DNA of 64,000 nucleotides from Candidatus Hydrogenedentota bacterium. GTDB lineage: Bacteria; Hydrogenedentota; Hydrogenedentia; Hydrogenedentales; SLHB01. Shown here one piece after another: positions 5,526 through 30,947 of the stretch. Every line of letters begins with the position of its first letter. Position 1 is the stretch's first letter. Location of the stretch: positions 96,001 to 160,000 of the forward strand of contig CAXXTH010000019.1 of assembly GCA_963668025.2 (NCBI GenBank). Reading direction: 5' to 3'. Under the pieces are notes generated by a model. That model had not been told where the DNA came from. It worked only from the letters and a program-made list of their open reading frames with translations, and made no database searches. The position numbers and the translations under genes are program-made.

Positions 5526-5716
5526 AGCGTGAAGCGCTACTCAAGCATCTCAGGCGCTTTGGTTGTCGGCTGGCGAGGGAAGGCGCATCACACTCCATTT
5601 GGTGTAATCCCGGCACGGGAGAGATACAAGCCATTCCCCGGCATGTAGAGATTGCTGAAAAGCTGGCTTTAAGCATATGCCGCAGATTATCGATACCATG
5701 CGCGGGAAAGCACTGA
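5522..5716 (+). CDS. hicA: HicA-family mRNA interferase toxin
   Basis: MKREALLKHLRRFGCRLAREGASHSIW...IPRHVEI, with the conserved GxxH. Confidence 0.9.
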   Translation: MKREALLKHLRRFGCRLAREGASHSIWCNPGTGEIQAIPRHVEIAEKLALSICRRLSIPCAGKH

Positions 5717-5730
5717 GTACATATAAAAAC

Positions 5731-5753
5731 TGGCGGGGCAAGCCCCACCCTAC
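5731..5753. repeat. GTAG-type REP-like palindrome
   Basis: Minus strand reads GTAGGGTGGGGCTTGCCCCGCCA, immediately after hicA. Confidence 0.5.
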
Positions 5754-5770
5754 GGAGGAGAAGGAAAACG

Positions 5771-6175: not shown

Positions 6176-6216
6176 TGTCTACAATGTATTCTACATGGCG
6201 CATTTGAGAATGCGCG

Positions 6217-6753
6217 TTGAACAGGAAGCGTATGCCTGGCGCAAGCAAACAACAGGGCTGGGAAGCCGAGGCTGGTTTCACGCTCATCGAGCTGATCGTT
6301 GTCGTGGTCATCATCATCATGATGACCGCTGCGGTAACACCCATGTTCGGGAGTTCGCTTCTCAGGGCGCGCAGTGACCGCACCACGCGCGACTTGCTCG
6401 CTTCCGCACGCCATGCCGGTGAAGAAGCGGTGCTCGAAGGAGTGGAGTTCCGCCTTTATCTCGACACAAACAAGCATACCTATTGGCTGGCGCGCTTTGA
6501 AGGCGAAAAAGAAGGCAAGGAAGTCTTCGCGCAGGTTGCCGGAAGCGAAGGTGAAGTACAAGAATTGCCGGAAAGTCTGCGCTTCGAGCGCCCTAAGGCC
6601 AAGCGGGGGGATAAGCAGGAAATCTATTACATCAGTTTTTATCCAGGCGGCTCATGTGATTACGCCGAAATTCGCATGGAAAAAAATAACCGGGATCGAG
6701 TCGAGATTGAAATCAAAGGCACGCCCAGCCGCATTAAGGTGAACGAGCGATGA
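6217..6753 (+). CDS. gspH: Minor pseudopilin GspH/FimT-like
   Basis: AG|FTLIELIVVVVII; ISFYPGGS motif; position after gspG. Confidence 0.85.
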   Translation: MNRKRMPGASKQQGWEAEAGFTLIELIVVVVIIIMMTAAVTPMFGSSLLRARSDRTTRDLLASARHAGEEAVLEGVEFRLYLDTNKHTYWLARFEGEKEGKEVFAQVAGSEGEVQELPESLRFERPKAKRGDKQEIYYISFYPGGSCDYAEIRMEKNNRDRVEIEIKGTPSRIKVNER

Positions 6754-7334
6754 ACCGCCGCAGCGCACAGCAGGGATATTTGCTCATCGAGGCCATCGTA
6801 GCCATGGCGGTGCTCAGCGCAGGGGTTGTTGCCATAAACGAATCGCTGCACCGCGCCGTGCTCCTGCGCGCCATTTCGGATGACAATACCCGGGCGGCGT
6901 TCTTTTTGAGCGATATCATGGGGCCTCTCGAAGTGCAATATAACGTGCCCGAAATGACGGTTGAAGGTTCGCTCGCCGAGAAATACGGGAGTAAAAGCAC
7001 TCGTGCGGGAACGGGTGGTTTGGAACGGTTTCGGTATCGAGTCCAAGTAGAAAACTTTGATCTGCCCATGCCCGCGCTTCCGCCGGATCTGCCTCCTGAA
7101 ATGTTCATGGCGCTCGAAGAGGCGGGGAAGAATCAGTTAAGAAAGATCAAAGCCACTATCATGTGGACGCGCGCGAGCCAGAAGTTCGAGTGTACGGCCC
7201 AGACCGTGGTGTTGCAGCAACCGGAATGGACGGATCCCCAACTCGGAACAGCAAAAGACACGGCCAAAGATCAGAAGGCGCAAGACGAGAAAACAGTAAA
7301 AACCAAGCAGAATTCCAAACTCAAAAAACAGTAA
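6750..7334 (+). CDS. gspI: Minor pseudopilin GspI-like
   Basis: QG|YLLIEAIVAMAVL prepilin-like N-terminus; operon order. Confidence 0.75.
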   Translation: MNRRSAQQGYLLIEAIVAMAVLSAGVVAINESLHRAVLLRAISDDNTRAAFFLSDIMGPLEVQYNVPEMTVEGSLAEKYGSKSTRAGTGGLERFRYRVQVENFDLPMPALPPDLPPEMFMALEEAGKNQLRKIKATIMWTRASQKFECTAQTVVLQQPEWTDPQLGTAKDTAKDQKAQDEKTVKTKQNSKLKKQ

Positions 7335-7354
7335 TCCGCAGTATCGAAACCGGC

Positions 7355-8119
7355 ATGAATAATAGGAGCAAAATGGCGAAAGGCCGTAAAAAGGGGTTCA
7401 CTCTTGCCGAGCTATTGGTGGCGTCCACGCTCGTCGCTATCGTTATGGGCTCGGTGTATACGGCTTTCTACTCCTCCATCCGCATTTGGCGCTTGGGCGA
7501 AGAAAACATGAACGCCTACCAAGATGCGCGCATCGCCTCGAATATGGTCCGCAACGACCTGGTCCGCATGATGCCGTATTCCTGGCATCTATTTGAAGGC
7601 GACGATTCCGAATTCGGATTCTACACCATTACGCCGCCCTTAGATGTCGAAACGGGCGTTATCCCACGGATCATGTGGGTGCATTATGAAGTGAAAAAAG
7701 ATGGCGATGGGGCGCTTTTGGAGCGGGATGAACAGCCGGTCGAGGGGCCGCTTCCGCTTCAATATCCCGGCATGGAAGAAGCGCCGGATATCAAGACGAA
7801 AGTCGATCTGGGCGATAAAGAAACCTTCACCGTTTCCACCAACATACTCAAAATGAAGGTCGAGTATATATGGCTTCCCGCCCCGCCAGAGATCCCGGAG
7901 GGTGGGGCCCCCACGGAAAGTGAAGCCGAAGAAGAAGCCGCCACGCTCGCGGAGCCGGTGGTGAAAGATGAACCCATGGAGGACTGGGACAAGCCGCAGG
8001 CCATGCGGATCACGTTCTTGGTCCATGATACGCGCGAAGAAAAGGAAACCACTACTTTTACGGCATATATTCCATTCAACGGCTCGCCGCCGACGCTCAC
8101 AGCGGAGGATATGGAATAA
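7355..8119 (+). CDS. gspJ: Minor pseudopilin GspJ-like (start 7355 or 7373, not 7163)
   Basis: KG|FTLAELLVASTLV; C-terminal PQAMRITF. Confidence 0.82.
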   Translation: MNNRSKMAKGRKKGFTLAELLVASTLVAIVMGSVYTAFYSSIRIWRLGEENMNAYQDARIASNMVRNDLVRMMPYSWHLFEGDDSEFGFYTITPPLDVETGVIPRIMWVHYEVKKDGDGALLERDEQPVEGPLPLQYPGMEEAPDIKTKVDLGDKETFTVSTNILKMKVEYIWLPAPPEIPEGGAPTESEAEEEAATLAEPVVKDEPMEDWDKPQAMRITFLVHDTREEKETTTFTAYIPFNGSPPTLTAEDME

Positions 8120-9168
8120 TGCGCCGCAAAAACGGGTTCGTATTGATTTTCGTGCTGTGGGTGCTGGCGATTTTGACCGTGATGACCCTCGGATTCGGCC
8201 GCCGCGCGCTGCTTGACGCCCGTTCGGCTTCGTATACGCTTGATGAAGTGCAGGCGCGGGCCGAAGCGAAGGGCGCTGTGTTCCGCGCCATCGCGGACAT
8301 GAAACAGCGGCAACTGATGTTCTCGATCCTCGGCGCCGCCATGACCGCCGATCCGCAAAACGCCAATTTAGCGGGCTTCGCCAAACAGCAGGAAAACATC
8401 TTTCTCCCCCATGACGCATCGAATACCTACGCCAGCGCGGAAGCAGGCGGAGGCAATGCGCCCGCAAGCGCCGCCCCTCCCCCCGCACAAGGAGCCGGAG
8501 GCGAAACAGCAGGGTCTTCTGAATCCAAAGACGAATGCGGATATCGCATCGAAGATGAAGAACGCCGCTTCAACATCAATACCGTGCCGGAGCAAATCCT
8601 GGATAATATCGAGATCCTGGATTTCCGTACGGCGGAGGCCATCATCGAGCGCACGCGGAAAAACGATGAAGGCGACGCGGAGCCCTTCATGGCTATCGAG
8701 GAGCTGCTATTCCTTCGAGGCATGGAAGAAGAAACCTTTACAGGCGAAGACGGCCAGCCAGGTTTGCGCGACATTTTTACGGTATATGGCGATGGAAAAG
8801 TGAACATCAACACGGCGTCAAGGGCCGTGTTGATGGGCATTCCGGATATAGATGAGGATTCGGTTGACGCCATTGTGGCGTTTCTAAATGGCATGGATCA
8901 GAAGAGATACACGGCCGATGATCAAATGGTGTCTTCCTTTGATGCGCTTCAATCCGAACTCAAGCTTGATCCAGCCGTCGTGACGCTGCTTAATCAGTAT
9001 TGCAAGACCGAGTCAGAGTTCTATAGAATTATTGGATATTCGACCCGCCGAAACGGACGAGTACGCGCGACATGCACCGCCGTATGCCAGATTAAGGGCT
9101 TGGCTAATCCAAAGGATGAATTTGTGATTTCAATGCTAGACTGGAAGGAGAGTGTCGGTGGCCCGTAA
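8119..9168 (+). CDS. gspK: Minor pseudopilin GspK
   Basis: G|FVLIFVLWVLAIL lacking E5; DEERRFNIN, FMAIEELLFLRG, KVNINTASRAVL. Confidence 0.93.
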   Translation: MRRKNGFVLIFVLWVLAILTVMTLGFGRRALLDARSASYTLDEVQARAEAKGAVFRAIADMKQRQLMFSILGAAMTADPQNANLAGFAKQQENIFLPHDASNTYASAEAGGGNAPASAAPPPAQGAGGETAGSSESKDECGYRIEDEERRFNINTVPEQILDNIEILDFRTAEAIIERTRKNDEGDAEPFMAIEELLFLRGMEEETFTGEDGQPGLRDIFTVYGDGKVNINTASRAVLMGIPDIDEDSVDAIVAFLNGMDQKRYTADDQMVSSFDALQSELKLDPAVVTLLNQYCKTESEFYRIIGYSTRRNGRVRATCTAVCQIKGLANPKDEFVISMLDWKESVGGP

Positions 9169-10624
9169 AAGTGGGCAAATCAGCATATTGCAGGTGGATG
9201 CAAACACGATCAACCGGTTGCGCGTGCGCCCCAGCAGCGCGGGGGTTGAAGTCACCGCGTATGACCAGGAGCGCGGCTCATGGACGGATGAATCCGCCCT
9301 CGCGGATGCGCTCAAGGTGTTCGCCCGCACCCATCGCTTGGCAGAAGACGAACTCTATAGTGTGCTGCCCCGGCACACGATGACCGCGCGCATCCTCGCG
9401 CTTCCATCCAATGATCTGGATGAAATCCGCGGCATGGTGCGCCTCGGGGCCGAAGAATTCGTGCCCTACCCCGCCCATGAATTGGTCATCGACCAATGTG
9501 TGCTGCAGAAACTCCCCGAGGGCATTTCAAACGTGCTGGCTGTTTTTGCCCATCGCGATGTGGTGGATGGCCATGTGCATCTGATGAAAGCCGCCGGGCT
9601 TGAACCCCATAGAATCTTTATCAGCACGGCATGCATCGCTTCTGCCGCTCGGGACGCTTGGAAAGGCGGCAGTGAGCCTTACGCCATCGTCAATCTGGCT
9701 TCGGGGGGAATCGAAGTCCTCATCATGAAAGATGGCTTTCTCGCCTACGGGCGGGGAGTGAGCACCACCCAGAATTGGGACACGCTCGAGGATAACGATA
9801 GTGAAGCCGGAGAAGAGCTGGCCATCGAGGTGAAAGCGTCGTTGTCCGCCTACCGGCGCGAATCCGAAGACGGGCAAAGCGTCGAAAAGGTGTTCATCTG
9901 TTCTGAAGGCGCAAACACCGAGGTGGCTGCGGCCGTTCTCGCCGAACAGACCGGCCTCGAGTGCGCCCCTACGCTGTTTGCCGCCAGCCTTGTCCATGGA
10001 ACCATCGCATCTCCGGCCACATTGCCGCTGGTATCGCTAGGTGCGGCTCTCGCCGCTCAGCAGCGAGAATCCGTCGCCATCGACCTCGTGCCGCAATCGC
10101 TGTTGAATGCGCGCGCCGAGGCATCCAACCGCCGCACGCTTATAGGCTCCGGATTGTTGTTAGGGTGCATTGTCGTGGCGCTGCTCGTCCTATATGGGAT
10201 CGGCACACACCAAAGAAACGCCTATATTACCCAGCTAGACGCCGAGATTGCCCTCGTTGCGGATAAAGCCACGGAAGTGCGGGATATGCAAAGCAAGCTG
10301 ACCCGGCTTAAAGAACAAGTCGATCGTTCAGGAACAGCGCTCGAGCTTATGGCCGATGTGGTGAAATTAATGCCCCCAAAAAATATGGCCATCACCAAGT
10401 TCTCGTTTGCCCGGAATGTAGAAATTACCATCGAGCTTCGAGTGAATGACCCCGCGGAAGCGGAACGCTTCACGAACAGCTTGCGTGAATCCAACGAACT
10501 GTTTAAAGACGCCAGCATGGGTAAAATCGGCACGATCCAGGAACGGGGCCGCACGTTGAACCAGCTCGAAATCAATATCCCATTGCCGGCGCCCGCGTCG
10601 GAAGAAGAAGGGGGCGGCCAGTGA
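9152..10624 (+). CDS. GspL / fused PilM-PilN-like assembly protein
   Basis: Actin-like PilM region (RILALPS..EIRGMVRLGAEEFVPYP), IDLVP motif, TM helix, coiled coil and PilN-like domain. Confidence 0.82.
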   Translation: MSVARKSGQISILQVDANTINRLRVRPSSAGVEVTAYDQERGSWTDESALADALKVFARTHRLAEDELYSVLPRHTMTARILALPSNDLDEIRGMVRLGAEEFVPYPAHELVIDQCVLQKLPEGISNVLAVFAHRDVVDGHVHLMKAAGLEPHRIFISTACIASAARDAWKGGSEPYAIVNLASGGIEVLIMKDGFLAYGRGVSTTQNWDTLEDNDSEAGEELAIEVKASLSAYRRESEDGQSVEKVFICSEGANTEVAAAVLAEQTGLECAPTLFAASLVHGTIASPATLPLVSLGAALAAQQRESVAIDLVPQSLLNARAEASNRRTLIGSGLLLGCIVVALLVLYGIGTHQRNAYITQLDAEIALVADKATEVRDMQSKLTRLKEQVDRSGTALELMADVVKLMPPKNMAITKFSFARNVEITIELRVNDPAEAERFTNSLRESNELFKDASMGKIGTIQERGRTLNQLEINIPLPAPASEEEGGGQ

Positions 10625-11301
10625 GCAGCCGATGGAGCCAAATGTCCCCGCGTGAACGGCGGCTTGCCGCCATCACTACCGTGATTGTCGGCATTATGCT
10701 CGCGTATATAGGCGTATCGCGTACGGTGGGGCATATTAAAAATTTGGATACAACCATCGCCTTGCGGCAAGGCGAACTGCGCGCCGATACGGTGCGCGCC
10801 GCCACGTATGATCGCGTCGTGCAGACATTTAGCGCCGTAGCGGAAGAGCACTCGAGCCAATTAGATGAGGCCAAGATCCGCGACCGCCTGCTTGCGGAGA
10901 TCTTGCGCCTGAGCATGGCGAAAATCCCTCCCGCCAGCAGCGCCGCCACCAGTTACACCGGCCCCAAGCTGGTGAACATCCCTTCTTTTCCCGAGGGCGA
11001 GCTGGAGGATTTAGGAGATGGATACCGGGAATATCGCATCCAACTTCGGACCGACCCGACTCGAATCGACAATATCGCTACTTTTTTACAACGCATCGAG
11101 GAAAGCGAGCAGCTTCTTCGGGTGGATAGCCTGGAACTGAGGCGGCCAAATCCGGAAGAAACAAGCGTGACAGCCAATATTTTGGTGACGCGCACACTCA
11201 TAGATTATTCGGGCATTGGCGATGAAGAACAAGCGCCTGAAACCGCTCCCAGCAGTGAGAATGCTGGCGAAGCGGCTTCTGAAGCGCCTGCGGCTCCATA
11301 A
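10621..11301 (+). CDS. GspM/PilO-like protein
   Basis: WSQMSPRERRL + TM helix; FLQRIEESEQLLRVDSLEL. Confidence 0.8.
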   Translation: MSSRWSQMSPRERRLAAITTVIVGIMLAYIGVSRTVGHIKNLDTTIALRQGELRADTVRAATYDRVVQTFSAVAEEHSSQLDEAKIRDRLLAEILRLSMAKIPPASSAATSYTGPKLVNIPSFPEGELEDLGDGYREYRIQLRTDPTRIDNIATFLQRIEESEQLLRVDSLELRRPNPEETSVTANILVTRTLIDYSGIGDEEQAPETAPSSENAGEAASEAPAAP

Positions 11302-11351
11302 CGGCCTTTAAGCGCCGCGCCAGATGAGGCGCCATTCCCGAAGGAGGGACC

Positions 11352-11873
11352 ATGAATAAACAACGAATCGGCTTCGCATTGGGCATCGCTGTCCTGGCGG
11401 GGCTGTGTGTGATGGCCATACTCAACTTGGTGAAAAACCCGGTCGAGGCGCGCTATGGCGATATCGCCTCGATCATTGAAGCCGATGAAATCTATGAGAT
11501 TAGCATACTCTATGATGGGGATGATGGAGATGGCGGCCAAGACAGCCAAAGCCCCGCGGCGAAAATGCGCAACGAGATCGCCAGCCGGGCCAGCTTATGG
11601 GCTCCCATCGTGGATGTTCCGCCTCCGCCAGCGCCCCCGCCCGATTGGAATAAGCTGCTCAAAGGCATCATACTAACGCGTACATTTATCGGTGAAGGCC
11701 CTGAGCGCAAGGTGAAGATTCTTAAAGATCCCAAAGATACCGTCGGGGAATGGGTCGGTGCGGGCTCGCGCGTCAATGGCCTTTTAGTAAAAGAAGTAAC
11801 AGATACCGCCGTTGTGTTTACTACCTTTGCAAACGGAAAAGAATATGAATACCGCATGTTGTTCCGCCGATGA
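11352..11873 (+). CDS. GspC/PilP-like protein
   Basis: N-terminal TM, Pro-rich linker, beta domain (WVGAGSRVNGLLVKEVTDTAVVF); sits directly before the secretin. Confidence 0.6.
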   Translation: MNKQRIGFALGIAVLAGLCVMAILNLVKNPVEARYGDIASIIEADEIYEISILYDGDDGDGGQDSQSPAAKMRNEIASRASLWAPIVDVPPPPAPPPDWNKLLKGIILTRTFIGEGPERKVKILKDPKDTVGEWVGAGSRVNGLLVKEVTDTAVVFTTFANGKEYEYRMLFRR

Positions 11874-12047
11874 GTTGTGTCAACCCGGCTAGGCGGAGCC
11901 TCGTATACCAAGCGTAGAAGAGATTGCCATTTTCGAGCAAGCGCAAACCCCATGGAGGGAGAAGCGCGGCTAGGGGTCCGGTTTCCGCTCCACATGTTGC
12001 AAAACAGGGGCAGGCCGCAGATAAGGGAAAGAAAGCGCAGGGGTGAG

Positions 12048-14483
12048 ATGAATCATCGGCATGGGATGTGGTGGGTAATCGGTGTAGGAGTTGCGGCCAT
12101 GTGCGCCACACTAATGTCCCCTGCTTTCGGGCAAACAAGCCCAACCGGCTCGGATGGGCCATCGGCCTCTAGTGTCACAACCGACATACCAGGCGGTGAA
12201 CAAGGCCAGGGCGCCGAACAAGGCCAGGGCGGCTCGACCGTACAAACAGGGGAATCTCCGCCAGCGCCTCGCCCGACCGTTAAAGCCGTACGCGCCACGA
12301 GCAGCGGCGCCCGCTCCCAAGGCAAAGAAGGCTTCGACGCCAGTTTGTTCAATCCGATTGAATGGCCTGAGATTCCCGATGAAGGCAAGCGCATGACGTG
12401 GACATCCGCTGGCGCGCCCGTGCCCGTGGTTCAACTCGCCGACGCCATCGCCGTGGCGACCAATTGGAACATCAGCACCTCCAAGGCCCTGGAAGAAGAG
12501 CAGATCCGCGTGTGGGCCACCAATGTGACCCCACGTGAACTGCTTAAAATCATGAAAAATTTCGGCATCTATTATGATTGGGATCCTACCATCAAGCTCC
12601 TGCGCCTGATGACGGTGGAAGAACACCTTAAAGCAAAATATGGCTCCATCTCCGAGGATGTATTCGAGATCAAACACGCCAAAGTCCAGGATATCGAAAA
12701 TATCCTCACCTCTCTTCTCTCGGAAAAAGGAAAGATCGTCGTAGATCCCCGCACCGGGCATGCCATGGTGTGGGATACGCCGGACAACTTGAAAGTCATG
12801 AAAGACACCCTCGAACGGGTAGACAAACCGCTCAAGGAAGCTGTTTTCCACTTGAAGCATATGGATGCGGACAGCGTGGTCGAGAACCTCACGGATGTCA
12901 TGTCCGAGGTCGGATATGCCCATGCGGACCAGCGCTCGAACTCGATTATCGTCGTCGACCTCCCTTCGCGCCAGGAGAAAATCGGCGACATTATCGCGGC
13001 GCTTGACCAGCCGCTCGAAACACGCACCTGGACTCTAAATTATCTGGAGCCTAAAGATGCGCTCGACCGGATCGGCAATCTGGTGCCTGAGGAAATGGGC
13101 CCCTCCTCGACAGACGAAAAAACCCACCAAATCAGCGTAACGGCCATTCCCGCGCGCCTTGAAGAAATCGACAAAATGCTCAAGGATTGGGATGTGGCCC
13201 GCAAGCAAGTGCAGATTCAGGCATATCTCGTCCTGGCGGATTCAAACATTGCCCGGCAGCTTGGCGTCAATTGGAATTACTTTGACGAGAAAAGCGGCTC
13301 GTCCTTCGCGTTACAGAACGGAGCGGCCTCTCCGGATTACTCGGTGCAATCTGGTGAAGGCCAGCGCCTGACCATTGGCACGCTGCCATACCAGGTGCCT
13401 CTCGTGAATTTCTGGACGGGCGAGGCGTTGAAGGATGCGGATGGCAACACCATCCTCGATCCGGAGTTTAAAGGCAACCGCATCAGCGCGGTCATAAAAC
13501 TCCTCGAAGACAACAACGTCGCGAAGGTGCTTTCCAGCCCGCGCGTCACGGTGATGGATGGCGAAGAGGCGAAATTCGAGGATACGCGAGATCGGCCGTA
13601 TCAAACGAGCGGCTACTCGTCTTACAATAATAACAATAATAACAACAACAGTAATTATTACAGCAATGTGATTCCGATGTCTGTTCAATTTGTCAATGTG
13701 GGCACTATCTTGAATGTGACGCCTCGCATCAATGAAGAACAGAACATCGTGATGGAGATCAGCGCGGAAGACAGCGACGCGACGGATGAAACCATTATCG
13801 TGGGCGATCAAGAGAGCACCGTGCCCAGCAAGAGTAAAAAAACTGCCGAAACCATCGTCATGGTGCATGACGGCCAGACGATCGTACTTGGCGGCTTGCG
13901 CACGACTCGCGCGGAAGATGACCTGAACAAGGTGCCGGTTCTCGGCGATGTGCCTCTGCTGAAACACCTCTTCCGCACATCCGACCGTTCGAGCCAGCAG
14001 CGCGATATCATGATCTTCCTCACGCCCACGATTTCGGATGAATTCACCAAACAAGAAGCGGACCGCCTGGCGCAGTTTGATGCGGATTTGGCTAAAAACG
14101 TGCGGCATAAAGAAAAAGACATCAAGGGGCGCGCTGAAGACAAGATTGCAAGCGGGAAAAATGAGATCATGCTCGCGGTCGGCCAATCGGGTGCGATGTA
14201 CTCCGACGGGAAACCGATGGTCATGGCGGATCTGGATGAGCTTCTAGCTGGCCAGGATTCCCCCAAATCGGTGACGCTCGTTATCCGCAGCCACCCGGAA
14301 ACGCCAGCGGAAGTGCTTGATGGCATCCAAACCTTGGCGGATCAATATGGCGTTAAGGTAGAACACGATCAGCGTATATCGGTGTTTGTGCCCTCGCCGC
14401 GCCCGGATAAGTCTGCGGAAGAAGCAGCGCCTGCCGCCGTGGAACAGAACCTGGAGCCGCTGGGCGAATCGCCTGAGTCTTGA
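12048..14483 (+). CDS. gspD: Secretin GspD with C-terminal ExbD/TolR-like extension (probable start ATG 12048)
   Basis: Signal peptide; repeated N-domains; QVQIQAYLV, VLSSPRVTVMDGEEA, VGTILNVTPRI, DGQTIVLGGL, KVPVLGDVPLLKHLFR. Confidence 0.93.
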   Translation: MNHRHGMWWVIGVGVAAMCATLMSPAFGQTSPTGSDGPSASSVTTDIPGGEQGQGAEQGQGGSTVQTGESPPAPRPTVKAVRATSSGARSQGKEGFDASLFNPIEWPEIPDEGKRMTWTSAGAPVPVVQLADAIAVATNWNISTSKALEEEQIRVWATNVTPRELLKIMKNFGIYYDWDPTIKLLRLMTVEEHLKAKYGSISEDVFEIKHAKVQDIENILTSLLSEKGKIVVDPRTGHAMVWDTPDNLKVMKDTLERVDKPLKEAVFHLKHMDADSVVENLTDVMSEVGYAHADQRSNSIIVVDLPSRQEKIGDIIAALDQPLETRTWTLNYLEPKDALDRIGNLVPEEMGPSSTDEKTHQISVTAIPARLEEIDKMLKDWDVARKQVQIQAYLVLADSNIARQLGVNWNYFDEKSGSSFALQNGAASPDYSVQSGEGQRLTIGTLPYQVPLVNFWTGEALKDADGNTILDPEFKGNRISAVIKLLEDNNVAKVLSSPRVTVMDGEEAKFEDTRDRPYQTSGYSSYNNNNNNNNSNYYSNVIPMSVQFVNVGTILNVTPRINEEQNIVMEISAEDSDATDETIIVGDQESTVPSKSKKTAETIVMVHDGQTIVLGGLRTTRAEDDLNKVPVLGDVPLLKHLFRTSDRSSQQRDIMIFLTPTISDEFTKQEADRLAQFDADLAKNVRHKEKDIKGRAEDKIASGKNEIMLAVGQSGAMYSDGKPMVMADLDELLAGQDSPKSVTLVIRSHPETPAEVLDGIQTLADQYGVKVEHDQRISVFVPSPRPDKSAEEAAPAAVEQNLEPLGESPES

Positions 14484-14542: not shown

Positions 14543-15646
14543 TTATACCTGTTCCCTGGGAGTTGGGAATTTCGTAGCGCAGGGCGCGGAGCCAAGGGTC
14601 TTGTCCAGCAAGGGCATGCTGGCATGCCCAGGCGCAAACACCGCCAAGATGCGTTCACGCACCAACGGAAGGGAAGCCTCCGGCGCTCCCGGCAACGAGA
14701 TCTGCCCGCCTGCCATGCAATAATGCCCGCCTCCTGTGCCTATCCGGCGCACTACGCGCCGCACCTTGGCCGCGACATTGCCGCGCATATCCAGCGCCCG
14801 CGCGGACAAATGGATCGTCCCCCCGCAATCGCCATAGCAAACGGAGGTGCGCATGCCTTCCAAGCGCAGCATCAATTCCGCCACTTCCGCAAAAATATCC
14901 GGATTCCCAGCCTTGCGCACCAAGGTAATAATCGCCGAACCCGCGACCTCCGCATTCGATAGGCCGCATCGGAGCATGGAAAAATAACTCGGGGGCACGG
15001 GCGCACGGCGAATATGCGCCATGCGCTTGCGGTCCATCAATGGCACGAGCGCCGTAAAGGCTTCTATGTCGGCGGGACAGGTCTCGCGGCCCAATTCCTG
15101 GGTATCCGAACGGATGCCGTAATATAGAGCCGTGGCCAGGCGGGCATCCGGCTCGATGCGCGCCGCCAGCATATACTCATAAAGAATCGTCGAGGTGGCT
15201 CCGTAAAAAGGCCGGATGTCACATAATTCCGCGCTCCAATGCGCTTGCGGGGGCCGGATGTGATGGTCAATCACGACATCCGCCGTACGGCTGGCCTCCA
15301 ACACGTTGTTGCCGGAATACGGCTGGGTGTCCACCAAGCAGATCGTCTTGAAGCCCGAAAGCTCGCCCGGCTCGAACCGGCGCAATTTGATGCCCAATTC
15401 CTCGACCATCGCCCGGTTTTCCGCACGCCCCAGCATGCCGCCGTAGCCGATCTCGACCCGCCGCCCGAGGCATTGGCTGGCGATCTCCCGAATGGCCGCG
15501 GCGCTGGCGATGGCGTCCGGATCGGGGCTGTTCTGCATCAACACCAGCGCCCGCCCACGCCGCCCGCATATAGCGAGCAGCTTCTCCAAATTCGCCGATG
15601 AACGCTCGATATCTAGTCCTTCCGGCATAATTGGCCGCCTCTCCAC
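14543..15646 (-). CDS. DHH/DHHA1-family phosphoesterase
   Basis: PDPDAIAS, LVDT, IDHH, GATSTI, GIRSDT and GGGH motifs. Confidence 0.92.
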   Translation of the reverse strand: MERRPIMPEGLDIERSSANLEKLLAICGRRGRALVLMQNSPDPDAIASAAAIREIASQCLGRRVEIGYGGMLGRAENRAMVEELGIKLRRFEPGELSGFKTICLVDTQPYSGNNVLEASRTADVVIDHHIRPPQAHWSAELCDIRPFYGATSTILYEYMLAARIEPDARLATALYYGIRSDTQELGRETCPADIEAFTALVPLMDRKRMAHIRRAPVPPSYFSMLRCGLSNAEVAGSAIITLVRKAGNPDIFAEVAELMLRLEGMRTSVCYGDCGGTIHLSARALDMRGNVAAKVRRVVRRIGTGGGHYCMAGGQISLPGAPEASLPLVRERILAVFAPGHASMPLLDKTLGSAPCATKFPTPREQV

Positions 15647-16029
15647 TCGCCCAACATGACTTTATGCGCTAAGATTTTTCGCGGCAATCACTTCTAGACC
15701 AGCTTTGGCTACCCGCCACGGATTCTTGATAAACGGATTCAAACCATCGATATGCTCGACAGTTCCATACCTGCATCCTTTCCCGTAACCACACCCAGTA
15801 TACCAGACCATCGGGCGATATGCCCGCCACGAGGACAGCTCGAATCGCCCGGTAAACAGAGACAAACCTATTGTCATCCACTAAAACAGCATATTCACGC
15901 CCAGCCCTAGAGACCTCCTTGTTTCTCAAAATGCCACCCCATAATCATCCTCGCGATAGCGGGGCTCCAAAAATGGACTTGGCAAGCCGAAACAAGCAAA
16001 TACCAGCAAGATGCACCAAAGAGGACAAG

Positions 16030-16114
16030 AAAGCGGTAGCAAGCTACCGCACTCCATACGTGCTCTAAGTTTTTTTGTGTAGCTATTTGGAGTGCGGCAG
16101 CTTGCTGCCGCTTT
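16030..16114. repeat. REP doublet (REPIN-like)
   Basis: AAAGCGGTAGCAAGCTACCGCACTCCA and inverted TGGAGTGCGGCAGCTTGCTGCCGCTTT; second doublet at 41919-42000; degenerate single copy near 38028. Confidence 0.85.
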
Positions 16115-16212
16115 GGGGGTGCGGCTCCCACTTGAATGTCCTTTTTCGGTTTTATGCCGATGCAAATGACACGGAGCGCATTTTTTGGAAGGCCTCGAAA
16201 GCGATGCTCCAA

Positions 16213-16255
16213 TGGAAATGCCCTGGATTCCCGCTTTCGCGGGAATGACACAGTG
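16213..16255. repeat. REP-like palindrome (GGATTCCCGCTTTCGCGGGAATGAC family)
   Basis: Hairpin ATTCCCGC-TTTC-GCGGGAAT; an interrupted copy lies at 1972-2171. Confidence 0.75.
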
Positions 16256-16443
16256 TTAGTACATTGCATTTCCGCCGCACTCTCATGTCCGGCGCTCTGG
16301 GGAGAGGCTGGCTCCACTGGCGCGGCCCCCAGAAGCTTGTTTGGAGCATGTACACCCATCAGTGGAAGGCGGCGGGAAGACGAATCACACTGGGGCATAG
16401 GAATCGCCAACTATGAGTGCCGCCGGAAGCCCTGGAATCCCGC

Positions 16444-16509
16444 TATGGCGAATCAATCTGCAAGGGCGGAAGGCACTCCTCGGTTGGGATGCCTTTTTTG
16501 TGCGTGGTG
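16444..16509. repeat. ~65-bp direct repeat, copy 1, with a terminator-like hairpin on the + strand
   Basis: GCGAATCAATCT..GGGCGGAAGGCACTCCTCGGTTGGGATGCCT followed by a T-run; copy 2 at 17265-17329. Confidence 0.85.
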
Positions 16510-16529
16510 TTCTGCATTTCCGGAATCTT

Positions 16530-17039
16530 CTACCAGAAGAACTGCCTCGGGGGGTACTGTCCTGTGAACAACCTCTCTCCGTAGCAAATGGCGCGTTTGC
16601 AGCGCCAATGATCGTGGGCATCGCAAGACGCTGTCAGGACTTGGTAGGCGCTCTTGGCGTCGTTTTCACCAAGCTTAAACGCAGCCTGCATCAGTAAAAA
16701 CAGAGCTTCGCTGCGAGATGATTGTGGTGTCACTGCTTGGGCTAATGTCAGGGCTTCCGTTAGCGCTTTACGTGCCTCAGAAGCGAGCCCTCTTTCTGCC
16801 AATGCGGAGATCTCCCACGCGCGAACCGCCGACCTCTTGTAATCGTCATCACAATCCGCTGCGGCCTTTCCCGCCTCGACTGCAAACGGGATCGGGTCGG
16901 AATCGGCGTATCTGGCAACCCACGACAGCGCCTGGGCTCGAAACCATGGGTCCGCTATCTCGCGTGCTTGAATCAACGCCTCACGGGGACTCACCTTGGC
17001 GAGATTGCATACCTCGTCGCGTTGTGTCGTCGCGCTCAT
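16530..17039 (-). CDS. Hypothetical alpha-helical repeat protein (cassette-like gene)
   Basis: GGAGG RBS before ATG 17039; repeats such as AREIADPWFRAQAL and AQAVTPQSSRSEAL. Confidence 0.75.
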   Translation of the reverse strand: MSATTQRDEVCNLAKVSPREALIQAREIADPWFRAQALSWVARYADSDPIPFAVEAGKAAADCDDDYKRSAVRAWEISALAERGLASEARKALTEALTLAQAVTPQSSRSEALFLLMQAAFKLGENDAKSAYQVLTASCDAHDHWRCKRAICYGERLFTGQYPPRQFFW

Positions 17040-17127
17040 GCCTTGCCTCCAAAATGACAAACAGGAATCAATACTAGAAACAGCGCCGAAAATAACACGA
17101 CGAGAATGCTTAGGAGTGTATGCATAT

Positions 17128-17186
17128 GGCTAACCTCATGGATCGAGCGCGGCGGTCACACCGTCGCCAGAAGCCGGTTGTTCGAC
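17128..17186 (-). other. Degenerate or hybrid attC-like site
   Basis: Minus strand GTCGAAC...GTTAGCC core sites around a short hairpin; the L boxes pair poorly. Confidence 0.4.
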
Positions 17187-17264
17187 GTCCGTTCCTGGCG
17201 TATAGATCATCAATACTTACCATAAGGCTTCAGTGGCGTTCATCTCACAGAACTCTATCATCGG

Positions 17265-17329
17265 TATAGCGAATCAATCTACAGGGCGGAAGGCACTCCT
17301 CGGTTGGGATGCCTCCTTTGCGCGTGATG
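17265..17329. repeat. ~65-bp direct repeat, copy 2
   Basis: Near-identical to 16444-16509; abuts the GTT core of the attC at 17327. Confidence 0.85.
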
Positions 17330-17407
17330 CAACACCCTTACCTCACGACAGGTGAAGGACGCTATCTGCGTCGGCCTTTACTTGTCTTGTGCAGATGGTT
17401 GTTGGGC
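17327..17407 (-). other. attC-like site at the 3' end of the DUF4145 gene
   Basis: Minus strand GCCCAAC-aaccat-CTGCAC...GTGAG-gtaagggt-GTTGCAT; L''/L' pair with one extra G. Confidence 0.65.
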
Positions 17408-18058
17408 TTCGTCAGTCTTTGCTCTTCGCTTCTGTAATGACTCAAAGCGTTTTGTGAGTGAGAACACGTAGATCAGAATGGCCTCGGTGAAGTCGAGGAC
17501 ATCGCGTGCATCTTCTTTGGTAACCGGGGTATCAATGTCGTGGGCTGCCTCATTCCCAATCAGGCGCACTTGGTGCGCCCAGTTCAATAAACGAGAGTCA
17601 ATATGTCCCTCTTCATGAAGTTTCCCGAGGCGTGCGTTTAGATCTCGGCCCTTGGTGTCGAAAATCTTGCAGATAGCCTCCAAACATTTTCGTGACATCA
17701 GAACACACGGCTCGAACAGGGAGGCATGTAGCGATCGGGCAGCCTGGTCGTACGCTGTCTTGACGCTCTCCGGAAGCTTCTCTGGAAGCAGTTTGGATTC
17801 ACCGGGGTAGAGAACTGTCTCTTCAGTGAAGTTCTCGAATTCACCAGGGATGCCATAGAGGGACTGCCTCACCAAGAAAGGTTGGTTGCAGCGACGACAA
17901 AGACAGACCGAGTAACGCTCCCCGTGGTACTCCGTGTCAACCTCGTCAATTGGGTTGACCGCGTCGCTACGAAACTCGGCGAATCCCTCAGCGATCACCT
18001 TCGCCTCTACAAGGATGTTGCACTGCGGGCAAAAGACGTCGAAACTTGATTCACCCAT
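17378..18058 (-). CDS. DUF4145 (HEPN-like) domain protein with N-terminal Zn ribbon (probable start 18058)
   Basis: CPQC...CRRC; AYDQAARSL, MSRKCLEAIC, LNARLGKL, VRLIGNEAAH (RxxxNxxxH); GAGGAG RBS. Confidence 0.88.
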   Translation of the reverse strand: MGESSFDVFCPQCNILVEAKVIAEGFAEFRSDAVNPIDEVDTEYHGERYSVCLCRRCNQPFLVRQSLYGIPGEFENFTEETVLYPGESKLLPEKLPESVKTAYDQAARSLHASLFEPCVLMSRKCLEAICKIFDTKGRDLNARLGKLHEEGHIDSRLLNWAHQVRLIGNEAAHDIDTPVTKEDARDVLDFTEAILIYVFSLTKRFESLQKRRAKTDEAQQPSAQDK

Positions 18059-18081
18059 CTGGTCATCTCTCCTCTTTCCCT

Positions 18082-18207
18082 TCTCAACGACAATGGTGAG
18101 CGACCACTGCCGACAGGAACAGTGGAGCGCACCAAGCACTCTCGAATGCCAGACCAGTATCGAGCGGAAGCGCTGGGTGGCGATTCCGCTCCACCCGCTG
18201 GTTAACC
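18082..18207 (-). other. Canonical-looking attC site (126 bp)
   Basis: Minus strand GGTTAAC-cagcgg-GTGGAGCG...CGCTCAC-cattgtc-GTTGAGA; extrahelical G in L''; a stop codon lies in R'' and the next ATG follows ~25 bp after R'. Confidence 0.8.
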
Positions 18208-18393
18208 GTTCTGCGCGCGCGTGCGCACATAGACCCGAAGCAAAAGCCCCCACATGACAACAATTGTGAAAACCGATAGGATAATCGCTAACAGGGTCGG
18301 TACGCCGGTAATTAGTCTCGAGTTAATGCTATCCGTTGGGGCTGCCGTCCACGGCGGCCTTACCAGAGTTGCGTTCGATCCAGTTGTTGGCGT

Positions 18394-19257
18394 TTACCAA
18401 TTTCCCGATGTCTTCAGATCATCCCTCATGGTCTCGACCTGGTTCCCGAGCTCGTTCAGCGAGGCAGTAAGCTCAGCATGGTTGTCCTTCGGGCTGTATA
18501 GGATTACTTTCAGGTTCATCGTGTCCTCGACGATACGGATTACATCGGCATGTAGGGAACCCTTCGGGATTACGAGGACATGACTCCGTGACGAAGGGTG
18601 TCGGAAGAATGCGTCCTCGAGCAGCAGAGCAACATCCGGATCGCTCACGCCACACCCGAGGAAGACAAACGTATGAGTCATTGCGAGGGCGTCGAGCACT
18701 TGGTAGAAGAGGCGATACTTATTCCTGGCCTTTGCATACTCCGACCGTGTGAAGATCATACGGTCCGGAGAGTCGATTGATCCGTGGATTTTGAGAACCA
18801 GCCGACCGTCTTCACGTATTGCATCAGTAACATCAGGATCGAAGTGATGTTTCACCACGATCGATGCGTTTGCCGCATGGTTCGCATAGACCTCGTAGAT
18901 TTTGTCGAAGTTCGGCGTAGCAACGATTCGCGAGTCAAGTCGGAAGATGTATTCATGGATCGGCGCGTATTGATAGCCGGGCGTGAGGAATTCGTCGCGC
19001 ACCAACTGTATAAAGTCATCTCTCCTGAGGCGATCTTTGATCACTTCACAGGCCGTCAGATAGTCCTTCTGATTGAGGAGCTTCCGTATGTGGGCGTTGG
19101 GATTCACACTGGCACATGCATCACGCAAGAAGGTCTCCCAGGTCTTCGGTATGCGTCCCATGGTGTTCGTTGAATTGCGTGAGATCCCTGCTCCAAGAAA
19201 GATCACGGATCTGCGGCGAGCGACGTCCTTGATGAGCTGTTGAGGCCAGATGATCAT
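18394..19257 (-). CDS. SIR2-family (SIR2_2) protein, predicted NADase effector
   Basis: IFLGAGIS, TPNFDKIYE, LKIHGS, FVFLGCGVSDPD motifs. Confidence 0.92.
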   Translation of the reverse strand: MIIWPQQLIKDVARRRSVIFLGAGISRNSTNTMGRIPKTWETFLRDACASVNPNAHIRKLLNQKDYLTACEVIKDRLRRDDFIQLVRDEFLTPGYQYAPIHEYIFRLDSRIVATPNFDKIYEVYANHAANASIVVKHHFDPDVTDAIREDGRLVLKIHGSIDSPDRMIFTRSEYAKARNKYRLFYQVLDALAMTHTFVFLGCGVSDPDVALLLEDAFFRHPSSRSHVLVIPKGSLHADVIRIVEDTMNLKVILYSPKDNHAELTASLNELGNQVETMRDDLKTSGNW

Positions 19258-20261
19258 ATGTTTGCCTCCAAATTGGCGGCCAGTTGCTCGGCGATCTTTG
19301 AGTAGATCCGCTCGGTATCTTTCACTTTCGCAAAATGCGCACCCACAACACCATCGGAACCTTTGAGCTTGAAGATTGGAGCGTGCGCCGATTGCGAGAG
19401 GGGAACCACGCTATGTAGGTTTGGAATTTCTCCCAGCTTGTAGAGAGCCGCCGATCCTAAAGACGAGAAATTCTCTATCAATTCCTTCTTGATCAGCGCA
19501 GGACCATTCCGGAGTATCTTGTCATAAGCCGATACAGGTTGGCGAACTCCACGTACACGCTTGGCAGTATATTGCTGTGTGATGTAGCCTATGAACTGAA
19601 GCTGCCAGGAGACGGGTTCGCTTGCAACAGCGTAGGGCTGTCCTTCTTCAGTCTCGTAATCGGCCAGTCCCTTCTCCAGTCCACGGCGCCACTTCTTGAG
19701 CGCAGTGGCGATATTCGATATTGCCATGATGCTGAAAATGTCGGACGACATTGGCATGAGAAAGAAATCAGACGCAATGAGCACCGCGCGGTTGAGTGCA
19801 CCTAAGGATGGACCGACATCAAACAGGACAATGTCGTAACCGATCATTTGTTGAAGTAAACCTTTGAAGACCAATGATGTCTGTAGTCCGCGAGGGTCGC
19901 CTCCAGCGCCACTTGTCCAATCCGAAGCAAGGAGGTCTTCGGATAGGGCAAGCCTTGGATCCCCCGGGACAAGATCGAATCCGAACCGTGGAGTAGTCAC
20001 AGGTGTGTATGTGGTCTCCATGTACCCCTTACCACGGCGTAGTGGATCGAAGAAGGCATCGATCGTTGCGCCTCGCGGAGAGGCGTACAGTTCCTGCACA
20101 TCGCTTTCTGGTAGAGAGTAGACTGTGGCGTTACATTGTGGGTCCGCGTCGACGACCAGGACGCGTTTTCCTAGAACGAGCTTGAAGTAAGCTCCGAGAT
20201 TGCACAGGAACGTAGTCTTCCCGACACCGCCTTTGTTGTTAAATACCACGATACTTTTCAC
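19254..20261 (-). CDS. ParA/MinD-family ATPase
   Basis: Deviant Walker A NNKGGVGKTT, VDADPQCNAT, FDVGPSLGALN; AAGGAGG RBS; stop codon overlaps the SIR2 start (ATGA). Confidence 0.93.
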   Translation of the reverse strand: MKSIVVFNNKGGVGKTTFLCNLGAYFKLVLGKRVLVVDADPQCNATVYSLPESDVQELYASPRGATIDAFFDPLRRGKGYMETTYTPVTTPRFGFDLVPGDPRLALSEDLLASDWTSGAGGDPRGLQTSLVFKGLLQQMIGYDIVLFDVGPSLGALNRAVLIASDFFLMPMSSDIFSIMAISNIATALKKWRRGLEKGLADYETEEGQPYAVASEPVSWQLQFIGYITQQYTAKRVRGVRQPVSAYDKILRNGPALIKKELIENFSSLGSAALYKLGEIPNLHSVVPLSQSAHAPIFKLKGSDGVVGAHFAKVKDTERIYSKIAEQLAANLEANI

Positions 20262-20433
20262 ATATGCCTCCTTGTTCTGCCTCTTGCCAGCAGTGGTTAT
20301 ATAGTTTCGTCATAGCATCTTTAGGTCGCAACATCGCGTCAAAAGATCCCTCCGACCGCGCTGGCATAAAGCCTGTATTTGCAGAGCATTGAATCATGCT
20401 CTGCAATGGACGCAGGGGGGATATATGGTTTCT

Positions 20434-20547
20434 GTGTAACACCCTTTCGTTCTCCGCTCTACAAATTGTCCACGGGACTCCTGACGCCCTTGACGCTATC
20501 GAGAAGTGGTGTGGCGGATGAATGCGGGAGAATAAGTTGTGTTGAAA
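20434..20547 (-). other. attC-like site upstream of the ParA-SIR2 unit
   Basis: Minus strand TTTCAAC-acaactta-TTCTCCCGC...GCGGAGAA-cgaaagggt-GTTACAC; one extra C; spacers longer than canonical; shares AAGGGTGTT with the 17327 site. Confidence 0.5.
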
Positions 20548-20757
20548 CAGGATTGAGATCTTCTCCATAAGGCCGTTCCCCTTGGGCAGCCCGGAGGGCT
20601 GCACTGTATTCTCCGTGTTCCGATGTCGGCATAGTATACCCCTATATGGCACGGAGGCAACAGGCGGGGGTGTTGAAGACAGCCAAACAAGCGCGGCTCC
20701 AGCGCCCTCGCCGGCCACCAGACGAAATGTAATGCTCTAGCGGAATGAAGCAAGAGT

Positions 20758-20912
20758 TTTTTTAGACATGATTTACAAGATTAACAAGATTGGACAAGAT
20801 CGCAACAATTTTTTTATTAAGCAAACCATGAAAAGAGCGAGCATGTTTTTCTTCTTGTAGCGGAATTGCCATCAAAAAATCTTGTCAATCTTGTAAATCA
20901 TGTCTAAAAAAT
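20758..20912. repeat. Long inverted repeat built from ~9-bp tandem units (ACAAGATT)
   Basis: TTTTTTAGACATGATTTACAAGATTAACAAGATT versus AATCTTGTCAATCTTGTAAATCATGTCTAAAAAA; a related unit occurs at ~26510. Confidence 0.8.
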
Positions 20913-21127
20913 CTCCCATAAATGGAAGTTTGCCATGTATTCGCGGTTCAAAAATCGGCCCAAGGCTTTTACTCCAGATGGCTAAATTATTGCGACGAAA
21001 TATAGCGTATCAATACCGTTGCAGCGCAATAAGCAAGGGCAAAAAGACAGCAGATGCTACTTCAGGTGGCTAACGTATTGCCGATATTTTTGCATGCAAA
21101 TCCACTTCGATGCTTTTTTAGGGGATA

Positions 21128-22186
21128 TCACACATTAAACCGGAACAGCACGATGTCCCCATCTTGCATGATATATTCTTTGCCTTCGAGGCGGACATGG
21201 CCCGCTTCGCGCGCCTTGGCCATCGAGCCCGCCGCGATGAAGTCTTTGTAGGCCACGGTTTCCGAGCGGATGAATCCGCGCTGGATGTCGCTGTGGATCA
21301 CGCCTGCCGCCTCGACAGCCTTCATACCCTTGCGGATGGTCCAGGCGCGCACTTCCGGCTCGCCCGCCGTGAGGAAGCTCATCAGGCCCAGCATACTGTA
21401 GGCCGTCTGGAGAAACCGCGTGCGCGATTCTTCGCCCAGGCCCAGTTCCTCCCGAAATGCGGCGCGCTCTTCTTCGGGCAGGCGCGACACTTCCATCTCC
21501 ATTTCGCCGCACAGTGCGATCAGGGCCTGGCCCGACTCCGCCGCATAGGCATCCAGGCCGGAAGGCTCATCGTTACCGATGGACTCTTCGCCGTAGTTTC
21601 CCAAGAGCATCAAGGGCTTTTGAGAGAGGAACTCGAAACCTTTGATCTCCTTCGCTTCTTGGGGGGATAGCTCGAGCGTCCGCAGCGAACGCCCCGCCTC
21701 GATATGCTCGCGGGCGCGAAGCAACACCTCGAATTCCGTGTCCTTCTTGTTTTCCTTCGCCATGCGTTCGAGGCGTTTCTCGATGATGATCAAATCGGCG
21801 ATCTGAAGCTCTTCCTCGAGGGCCTTGCAGTCGCGGACGGGATTCACCTCCCCCACGGGATGCATGACTTCTTCATTCTCGAAGGCGCGCACCACGTGGA
21901 CCAGGGCGTCCACATTCTTGAGCAGCGTCATGGCGGCGGCATCGAGGGCCTTTTCCTGGCCGCCCGATTCGCTCGGGGCCACATCGACGAACTGGAATTC
22001 GGCGTAGGTGATTTTCTTCGGCTTATGGATCTGGGCGAGCCGGTCCACCCGTTCATCCGGCACTTTCAGCACCGCCACATTGGCGTCGCGGCTGCCAAAA
22101 GCGCCCACTTCCGCGTGGGCCCCGGTCAATGCGTTAAACACAGTGGTCTTGCCCGAACGGGCGAATCCGATAATGCCAGCTTTCAT
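21128..22186 (-). CDS. ychF: Ribosome-binding ATPase YchF
   Basis: GIIGFARSGKTTVFN, VPDERVD, LVHVVRAF, FLTAGEPEVRAWTI, IHSDIQRGFIR, EGKEYIMQDGD. Confidence 0.95.
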   Translation of the reverse strand: MKAGIIGFARSGKTTVFNALTGAHAEVGAFGSRDANVAVLKVPDERVDRLAQIHKPKKITYAEFQFVDVAPSESGGQEKALDAAAMTLLKNVDALVHVVRAFENEEVMHPVGEVNPVRDCKALEEELQIADLIIIEKRLERMAKENKKDTEFEVLLRAREHIEAGRSLRTLELSPQEAKEIKGFEFLSQKPLMLLGNYGEESIGNDEPSGLDAYAAESGQALIALCGEMEMEVSRLPEEERAAFREELGLGEESRTRFLQTAYSMLGLMSFLTAGEPEVRAWTIRKGMKAVEAAGVIHSDIQRGFIRSETVAYKDFIAAGSMAKAREAGHVRLEGKEYIMQDGDIVLFRFNV

Positions 22187-30392: not shown

Positions 30393-30947
30393 GTCTTTTA
30401 CACGAATGGCTCAACGTTACCGAGCGCTGGCGCGATGCTTTTGCCCAAGAGCGCACCACCGTGCGTGCGGTGCGGCAGGGACTTGGGTCACTGGTCTGTT
30501 TGGGGCGGCGCACAATCACGCGGACCCTTTGGGCCTGTGGTCGCGAGAATCTGCAGTGGCAGGCTGAATACCACATGTACGGCCGCGCCAAGTGGGACCC
30601 CCAGCAGCTCTTCGACCCTATTTGGGAAGGAGCCCTGCCCCAGTGTGAAGACCCGCTTGTAGGCGTCGCCGTCGATGATACCAAGCTGCACAAGACCGGC
30701 CGGTGCATTGTCCAGGCTTTTCATCAGCGCGACCCCCTGTCCCCGCCGTTCCACACCAATCTCATTCTGGGCCTGCGTTTCCTGCAGGCCTCCCTTCTCG
30801 TACCGCTTCACCAAGGCGGCGCCTTTAGTTGCCGCGCCTTGCCCGTGCGTTTCGAGGAGCCTTCCCCCGCCAAGAAGCCTGGCAAGCGCGCAAGCGAGGA
30901 GGAGTGGATGGCGTACAAGCAGCGCCGTAAAGAGAAGAACCTTTCAA
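30389..30947 (+). pseudogene. IS701/IS4-superfamily transposase truncated by IS1380
   Basis: VAVDDTKLHKTG first DDE motif; the frame ends at the IS1380 terminus. Confidence 0.8.

Follow-up and report, generated by a model that had tools for sequence, protein, structure and literature searches.

The ParA-SIR2 gene pair and the insertion that carries it

We analysed a 64,000-nucleotide (nt) stretch of DNA, referred to below as the window, from a Candidatus Hydrogenedentota bacterium (assembly GCA_963668025.2, contig CAXXTH010000019.1, positions 96,001 to 160,000). Our subject is a two-gene unit on its minus strand, in which a gene for a ParA-like ATPase (called ParA below) is followed by a gene for a sirtuin-like protein (the SIR2 protein). 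The features of the pair are listed here, the last three as read from the sequence (ORF, open reading frame; aa, amino acids).

19254-20261, minus strand: ORF of 335 aa with a GTG start, ParA-like ATPase gene
18394-19257, minus strand: ORF of 287 aa, SIR2_2 (sirtuin-like) gene
19254-19257, minus strand: 4-nt ATGA overlap of the ParA stop (TGA) and the SIR2 start (ATG)
19265-19269, minus strand: GGAGG, 7 nt upstream of the SIR2 ATG
20267-20273, minus strand: Shine-Dalgarno motif AAGGAGG, 5 nt upstream of the ParA GTG start

An initial annotation had described a two-gene unit joined by an ATGA overlap, with the motifs KGGVGKT in ParA and GAGIS, NFD and HGS in the SIR2 protein intact, with no parB gene beside it, and with a lower guanine plus cytosine (GC) content than the neighbouring genes. 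Our reading of the ORFs, of the 4-nt overlap and of the motifs agrees with this description, and no ParB family was detected among the called ORFs of the insertion or of the window. The difference in composition is real and modest: GC is 52.2% in the pair and 55.4% in the genome (17th percentile of 6545 windows), and GC at third codon positions is 0.55 and 0.64 in the two genes, compared to 0.73-0.75 in the flanking DHH-family gene and ychF.

The pair lies within a larger block of DNA.

15647-21127, no strand: ~5.5-kb insertion between the DHH-family gene (14543-15646) and ychF (from 21128)

This insertion, or island, has a GC content of 52.1% and contains dispersed repeats, a HEAT-like ORF, a DUF4145 gene and the ParA-SIR2 pair. 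It has no counterpart in relatives: in 6 of 20 related genomes (G001, G002, G004, G009, G011 and G012), the matches to the DHH-family gene and ychF share a contig, with 0.1-0.7 kb between them, and in none of the 20 were the DUF4145, SIR2 or ParA genes covered, among the matches listed. At E ≤ 1e-30, the SIR2 protein was detected in 1 of 135 genomes of the phylum, which is the present one. We conclude that the pair was acquired horizontally.

The two genes are inherited together across phyla

Homologues of both proteins, with 55-86% identity, were found in many phyla. Two sets of loci were used to ask for conserved synteny of parA and sir2. The SIR2-seeded set comprised 19 loci, of which 3 are plasmid records and 16 come from species genomes; it spans Alpha- and Gammaproteobacteria, Desulfobaccales, Verrucomicrobiae and Planctomycetota, and includes a Methanobacteriota archaeon. 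A ParA homologue was present directly upstream on the same strand in all 19, with a ParA match in two pieces in one locus (L015) and both genes degraded in another (L019). The ParA-seeded set comprised 80 metagenome loci, 3 of which end at ParA without downstream DNA. In 70 of the 77 informative loci the SIR2 gene was directly downstream, and the 7 that lacked it had the most distant ParAs (~34% identity). The linkage proposed for checking along with the initial annotation was therefore found in both sets.

The coupling is tight as well as frequent. The distance from ParA stop to SIR2 start ranged from -23 to +9 nt in all 69 complete pairs, and was -4 nt in 27 cases. The two proteins also diverge together: their pairwise identities were correlated (r 0.78), a value reached in none of 1000 permutations. 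In at least 95% of the 69 pairs, residues K10, K15, D38, D40, D143 and D148 of ParA and G22, G24, S26, N116, D118 and H158 of the SIR2 protein were conserved. The pair in the window is thus intact, translationally coupled, inherited together and conserved in its catalytic residues, and the two sets of loci support ParA-SIR2 as a conserved, co-inherited module. Mean column identity across phyla within the near clade was 74% for SIR2 and 62% for ParA.

In a quick tree of the concatenated proteins, the nearest relatives of the window pair came from a Desulfobaccales bacterium, a gammaproteobacterium and a Methanobacteriota archaeon. Close homologues were also present in enterobacterial species (Dryocola loci), and the names Klebsiella and Aeromonas appeared among the homologues; a distant DNA search of E. 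coli complete genomes with the Salmonella-type pair gave no match. Full-length but more distant ParA relatives, encoded on plasmids of Vibrio, Pantoea and Nostoc, had no listed partner, a weak observation given that the PLSDB gene tables are incomplete.

The SIR2 protein resembles defence NADases

The sole Pfam family of the SIR2 protein is SIR2_2 (PF13289, 4.3e-22). Its motifs are GAGIS at residues 22-26, NFD at 116-118 and HGS at 158-160. Classical deacetylase sirtuins have a CxxC zinc module, and none was found in the SIR2 protein sequence. The PADLOC models that matched were ThsA (1.3e-18), LmuA and Dsr1, the SIR2 domain alone being covered. A profile search against the PDB returned ThsA (5e-13), DSR2, FAM118B and KomC. 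The structural model (predicted local distance difference test, pLDDT, 86.8) gave BcThsA as top Foldseek match (query-normalised template modelling score, TMq, 0.75), and DSR2, SeThsA, EfAvs5, human FAM118B and KomC as further fold matches. Both the sequence and the predicted fold therefore support placing the protein with the defence NADases ThsA, DSR2, Avs5 and KomC, and by analogy with these relatives it is predicted to be an NAD+-consuming effector.

The family is small: at E ≤ 1e-30, a search of 1.84 billion representatives returned 129 clusters (50% identity), and almost all members have a length of 285-293 aa. The phage collection yielded one weak SIR2 match only, at 23% identity.

The ParA-like ATPase resembles Soj/ParA proteins and has a conserved C-terminal stretch

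ParA matched the Pfam families AAA_31 (PF13614, 9.8e-26) and CbiA (PF01656, 1.3e-14). It is a SIMIBI ATPase with a deviant Walker A motif, NNKGGVGKTT, in which KGGVGKT occupies residues 10-16 and the lysines are K10 and K15. The sensor reads D38-x-D40-P-Q42 (D38-A-D40), and the Walker B motif D143xxxxD148 (D143-IVLF-D148). Three further positions were invariant in the ParA alignment: N9, just before K10, V13, within KGGVGKT, and Q42, after D38xD40.

The best PDB profile match was 3pg5 (E 7.8e-53, residues 1-312), which was also the top fold match of the structural model (pLDDT 83.7, TMq 0.77), followed by Soj/ParA partition ATPases. None of the curated NCBIfam models scored above its cut-off, all partition and MinD equivalog models falling below theirs; with NF041546, for example, ParA scored 58 bits against a cut-off of 180. 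The ESM Atlas returned generic ParA cluster names only. A stretch at about residues 290-310 was modelled with low confidence, yet is well conserved, and may be a partner- or DNA-binding segment. Prediction of the ParA and SIR2 complex scored 0.00 in two runs made without controls, a result that counts neither way.

Effectors are exchanged, and a sister clade carries DNA methyltransferases

The same genome carries two paralogous ParA genes, whose products are 35% and 32% identical to the window ParA, each paired with another gene.

G000:C10:411564-412523 (L110): paralogous ParA-effector pair
G000:C12:14333-15229 (L111): paralogous ParA-effector pair

In one case a Schlafen AlbA_2/HATPase_c_4 gene overlaps the start of ParA from the upstream side. 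In the other, a RelA_SpoT-domain gene follows ParA at a distance of 7 nt, and a 197-aa ORF without family lies upstream. An AlbA_2/HATPase_c_4 gene overlapping ParA was found again in 2 of the 7 SIR2-less metagenome loci.

An operonic DNA methyltransferase was present in 8 of 100 loci, in two families and three gene orders. A PF01555 methyltransferase is directly upstream of ParA in L083, L084, L087 and L088, while the second family is upstream in L003 (a Salmonella record) and directly downstream of SIR2 in L076, L081 and L085. In one database protein, P0242 (665 aa), SIR2 and methyltransferase are naturally fused: its residues 1-290 are SIR2, 49% identical to the window SIR2 protein, and the part from residue 296 to 663 shares 53% identity with the methyltransferase of L081. 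In the quick tree, all 7 methyltransferase-linked rows fell in one clade of 16 rows, and the window in the other, of 53 rows. Because a methyltransferase is joined or fused to the core in the sister clade, these relatives suggest that DNA is the sensed molecule, and that methylation marks self in those variants.

Genomic contexts of the pair in other genomes

Several loci of the SIR2-seeded set lie on plasmids or have mobility, restriction-modification or other conflict genes nearby. L001 and L002 are plasmids, and L004 has genes of the integrative and conjugative element (ICE) type. In L007 an integrase adjoins the pair, and a C5 methylase occurs with an MvaI-type endonuclease. QatC- and RmrA-like genes were found in L011, a SoFic-like gene (2.6e-82) in L017, and an AriA/PtuA-like ATPase with a type I methylase in L019. 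L006, from a gammaproteobacterial metagenome-assembled genome, has an integrase, a D5-type primase, DarT with an ADP-ribosylglycohydrolase, and a UvrD/GajB-like helicase; at 9000-12690 of this locus, the pair adjoins the DarT/ADP-ribosylglycohydrolase genes and the UvrD-type helicase inside the integrase/primase element.

A probable member of a predicted class of ParA-effector systems

The initial annotation had proposed the pairing as undescribed. It has in fact been predicted computationally: ParA with a sirtuin is among the 'ParA-effector systems' of Li, Burroughs & Aravind (bioRxiv 10.64898/2026.10.19.760177, 22 Oct 2026, section 16; hereafter the preprint). Literature searches on the ParA-SIR2 pairing returned nothing beyond it, with papers judged by title or by passages. 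In the preprint these systems form part of the ConB1 clade and couple a ParA gene to a variable effector gene, the sirtuin being effector (ii). C-terminal extensions of ParA are proposed there to intercept invading DNA, and the effector to be released once containment is overcome.

The motifs given for the ParA clade are KGGxGK[ST], a Walker B DhhhhD and a sensor DxD (preprint, section 10). PriB1 is marked by Asn at the N-terminal-most Walker A position and by Gln two positions after DxD, and ConB1 by a conserved Val inside Walker A (section 12). The window ParA has the three clade motifs (KGGVGKT, D143-IVLF-D148 and D38-A-D40) and, by motif reading rather than by HMM (hidden Markov model) logos, the PriB1/ConB1 marks N9, Q42 and V13. 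It is coupled in an operon to an enzymatic effector of the variable kind, through the 4-nt overlap with the PF13289 gene, and the three ParA pairs of this genome, the other two having Schlafen-kinase and RelA-type effectors, match variants (ii), (iii) and (i) of the preprint. Because of these marks and of the three matching pairs, we file the window pair as a probable member of the predicted ParA-effector class, sirtuin variant, as that class is described in these sections, an assignment set by motifs and operon and not by tree placement. As to the initial annotation as a whole, its observation was largely right and its defence reading is plausible; the pairing was already catalogued as a prediction, and the integron context was wrong, as detailed below.

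Interpretation and alternatives

Our preferred reading, to which we give a probability of roughly 0.6, is that the pair is a horizontally acquired two-gene conflict module, anti-phage or anti-plasmid, of the 'ParA-effector' type in its sirtuin variant, this being a predicted function. Defence is preferred because the genes are paired, coupled, co-diverging and catalytically conserved, because the SIR2 protein is like defence NADases, and because the pair was acquired and belongs to a family that swaps effectors. The ParA-like ATPase would form an ATP-dependent dimer on DNA, as Soj/ParA-class proteins do, and this dimer would hold or control its SIR2 partner. Foreign DNA, or the disturbance it causes, would shift the state of the ATPase, so that the SIR2 protein is released or assembled. 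It would then destroy NAD+, and growth of the infected cell would stop (abortive infection). The gating of the NADase by the ATPase is putative.

A more specific version of this scheme is tentative. The ParA-SIR2 core might join a sensor of DNA state to an effector, and the methyltransferase-linked or fused relatives would be akin to restriction-modification systems, with NAD+ destruction as the 'restriction' arm, and the window form would be the same machine without a modification mark.

A number of observations weigh against the defence reading. Conservation in the near clade is unusually high for an immune sensor, and the C-terminal stretch 281-310 of ParA is conserved, not fast-evolving, where the preprint invokes 'rapidly evolving C-terminal extensions'. 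The window pair has no methyltransferase by which self could be told from non-self. Sirtuin domains could also act as ADP-ribosyltransferases or deacylases (preprint, section 16). At least one PADLOC match at E ≤ 1e-10 was found in 9 of the 16 genome loci (142 neighbouring ORFs of at least 130 aa), and from this count no enrichment in defence islands is claimed, because some matches are generic (IstB, kinase, ankyrin) and there was no background control; in several loci (e.g. L012, L014 and L016) no recognisable defence or mobile genes were seen nearby. The pair is not a system in PADLOC-DB v2.0.0, in keeping with the absence of a named match noted initially, nothing in NCBIfam scored above cut-off, and the preprint is, in the sections cited, a computational prediction only.

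Among the alternatives, the components may be the same and their logic different. According to the logic proposed in the preprint (sections 16 and 41), ParA is the first-line effector, which coats or sequesters the invading DNA, and the sirtuin is a back-up suicide effector used when containment fails. The fold of ParA is nearest to DNA-binding Soj/ParA proteins, and stand-alone ParA relatives of similar length, on plasmids or beside integrases, have no effector gene, both of which fit such a role. However, the effector is obligate in this clade, and a tight translational coupling suits a stoichiometric complex better than a spare part, and we hold this logic to be rather unlikely for the present pair.

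Less probable still is an addiction module of the toxin-antitoxin kind, which would stabilise mobile elements with SIR2 as toxin and ParA as antidote or regulator, without any anti-phage role. The pair is mobile across phyla, and copies were found on plasmids, within an ICE-like region, and next to integrases and toxin-antitoxin genes, as expected of such a module. Many copies, however, reside in small chromosomal islands whose flanks, as far as read, contain no mobility genes; the methyltransferase-linked or fused variants indicate discrimination at the DNA level; and the paralogous ParAs take varied effectors, as defence systems do. Addiction and defence are compatible, and not mutually exclusive.

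A housekeeping or regulatory role, in which an orphan partition ATPase is tuned by a sirtuin deacylase or ADP-ribosyltransferase, appears very improbable. Sirtuin domains do have these activities (preprint, section 16), and ParA-family proteins fill many positioning roles, but a distribution of 1 genome in 135 of the phylum, with none of the 20 relatives among the matches listed, speaks against such a role. The scores below cut-off with all partition and MinD equivalog models, the lack of a CxxC zinc module in the SIR2 sequence, and the predicted nearest folds, which are defence NADases, argue in the same direction.

The defence reading of the pair gives it some general interest. ParA/MinD ATPases are positioning machines, and their use in immunity is so far a prediction only. 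The pair is compact (two genes, ~1.9 kb), conserved, and has close enterobacterial homologues, which makes it well suited to a first experimental test of the ParA-effector class. Should the methyltransferase-linked relatives work in the proposed way, DNA modification would in them be coupled to metabolic suicide and not to DNA cleavage. For the window itself, the pair is one more horizontally acquired member of the class, in a phylum otherwise without a detected copy.

Repeats of the insertion and neighbouring features

The initial annotation had placed the pair between attC-like sites, on an integron-type cassette. Two palindromic elements of the insertion are concerned.

20754-20915, no strand: 162-bp element with 38-nt inverted arms (95% complementary), similar to a miniature inverted-repeat transposable element (MITE)
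16030-16114, no strand: 85-bp palindromic repeat with 27-nt arms, dispersed

The first gave 146 BLAST pieces on more than 10 contigs of the genome, and the second 48 BLAST pieces on many contigs. They represent two palindromic repeat families of the MITE or REP (repetitive extragenic palindromic) kind, and the second of them, that of 16030-16114, has short matches in related genomes too. Potential attC sites were searched on both strands as RYYYAAC ... GTTRRRY pairs with an overall length of 52-151 nt, without a covariance model. The scan found no core-site pair in 15600-21200, and 2 in the whole window. No integrase gene was found in or beside the island, the sole tyrosine recombinase gene of the window being at 47950-48720, ~28 kb from the pair. 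The integron context was therefore rejected, since the palindromes are dispersed genome-wide and neither attC core sites nor an integrase were found in the island. That the pair is an attC-bounded gene cassette captured by an integron integrase, as the imperfect palindromes on either side of the island genes and a 69-nt direct repeat around the neighbouring HEAT-like ORF might have suggested, now has a negligible likelihood, all the more so as no cassette array was seen around any of the 19 SIR2-seeded loci.

The 69-nt direct repeat (16441-16509 and 17262-17329, ~88% identical) has these two copies only in the genome. It brackets the 176-aa HEAT-like ORF (16530-17060), and each copy contains, on the plus strand, a hairpin with a T-rich run after it.

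The DUF4145 gene (17378-18058, minus strand; PF13643, 5.7e-19) lies 335 nt downstream of the SIR2 stop. Its start is probably the ATG at 18058 and not the GTG at 18253, and a PADLOC match (1.9e-12) connects it with PD-T7-4, a system of one gene. As a third component of the ParA-SIR2 module it was rejected, no homologue being found in the 19 and 80 loci. Because it is not linked to the pair in other loci, it may be a further defence gene of the island, independent of the pair.

Further away in the window, a type II secretion or type IV pilus-like cluster (313-14483) is located upstream of the island and includes an ATPase, a platform protein, pseudopilins, a PilM-like protein and a secretin. 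On the other side, two direct copies of an insertion sequence with a 517-aa DDE transposase (30946-32580 and 46030-47664) are 15,084 nt apart. They bracket ~13 kb of mostly unannotated genes, possibly as a composite transposon, and the tyrosine recombinase gene (47950-48720) comes next.

Comparison with known systems

The window ParA and the Soj/ParA proteins of ParABS systems have a deviant Walker A ATPase fold in common. Proteins of this class form ATP dimers and bind DNA non-specifically (preprint, section 10). Unlike them, the window ParA has no ParB or other centromere-binding partner, and it has an additional C-terminal part. The pair was not assigned to a ParABS or plasmid partition system, given the lack of a ParB family among the called ORFs and the scores with the curated models, all below cut-off. 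The nearest structure, 3pg5, is DIP2308 of Corynebacterium diphtheriae, a structural-genomics entry named 'Uncharacterized protein' without attached function. It is a full-length relative of the window ParA and covers most of its C-terminal part.

SIR2-HerA likewise consists of two genes, for an NTPase and a small SIR2 protein. Its partner is the RecA-like HerA ATPase, whereas that of the window is a SIMIBI protein of the ParA/Soj type (AAA_31/CbiA, Soj-like predicted fold), and PADLOC gave no HerA match, so that the pair was not assigned to SIR2-HerA.

Thoeris ThsA and DSR2 are the nearest relatives of the window SIR2 domain, and the Asn/His catalytic pair is conserved. ThsA has a second, signal-binding domain and a TIR partner (ThsB), whereas the window SIR2 protein, with its 287 aa, is a SIR2 domain alone. 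The island ORFs gave no match to a TIR family, and the PADLOC match to ThsA concerned the SIR2 part only; Thoeris was discarded. DSR2, at ~1000 aa, has its own sensor part, and DSR1/DSR2 proteins in general are at least about as long, with SIR2 at the N-terminus and a sensor at the C-terminus, a plan into which the much shorter window protein does not fit.

The ParA-effector systems of the preprint are among the closest described systems, and the present clade differs from them in two respects. Its ParA residues 281-310 are conserved, as mentioned above, and, whereas the main text of the preprint does not contain the words methyltransferase, methylase or MTase, a sub-clade found here has such an enzyme, either encoded in the operon or fused to the SIR2 protein.

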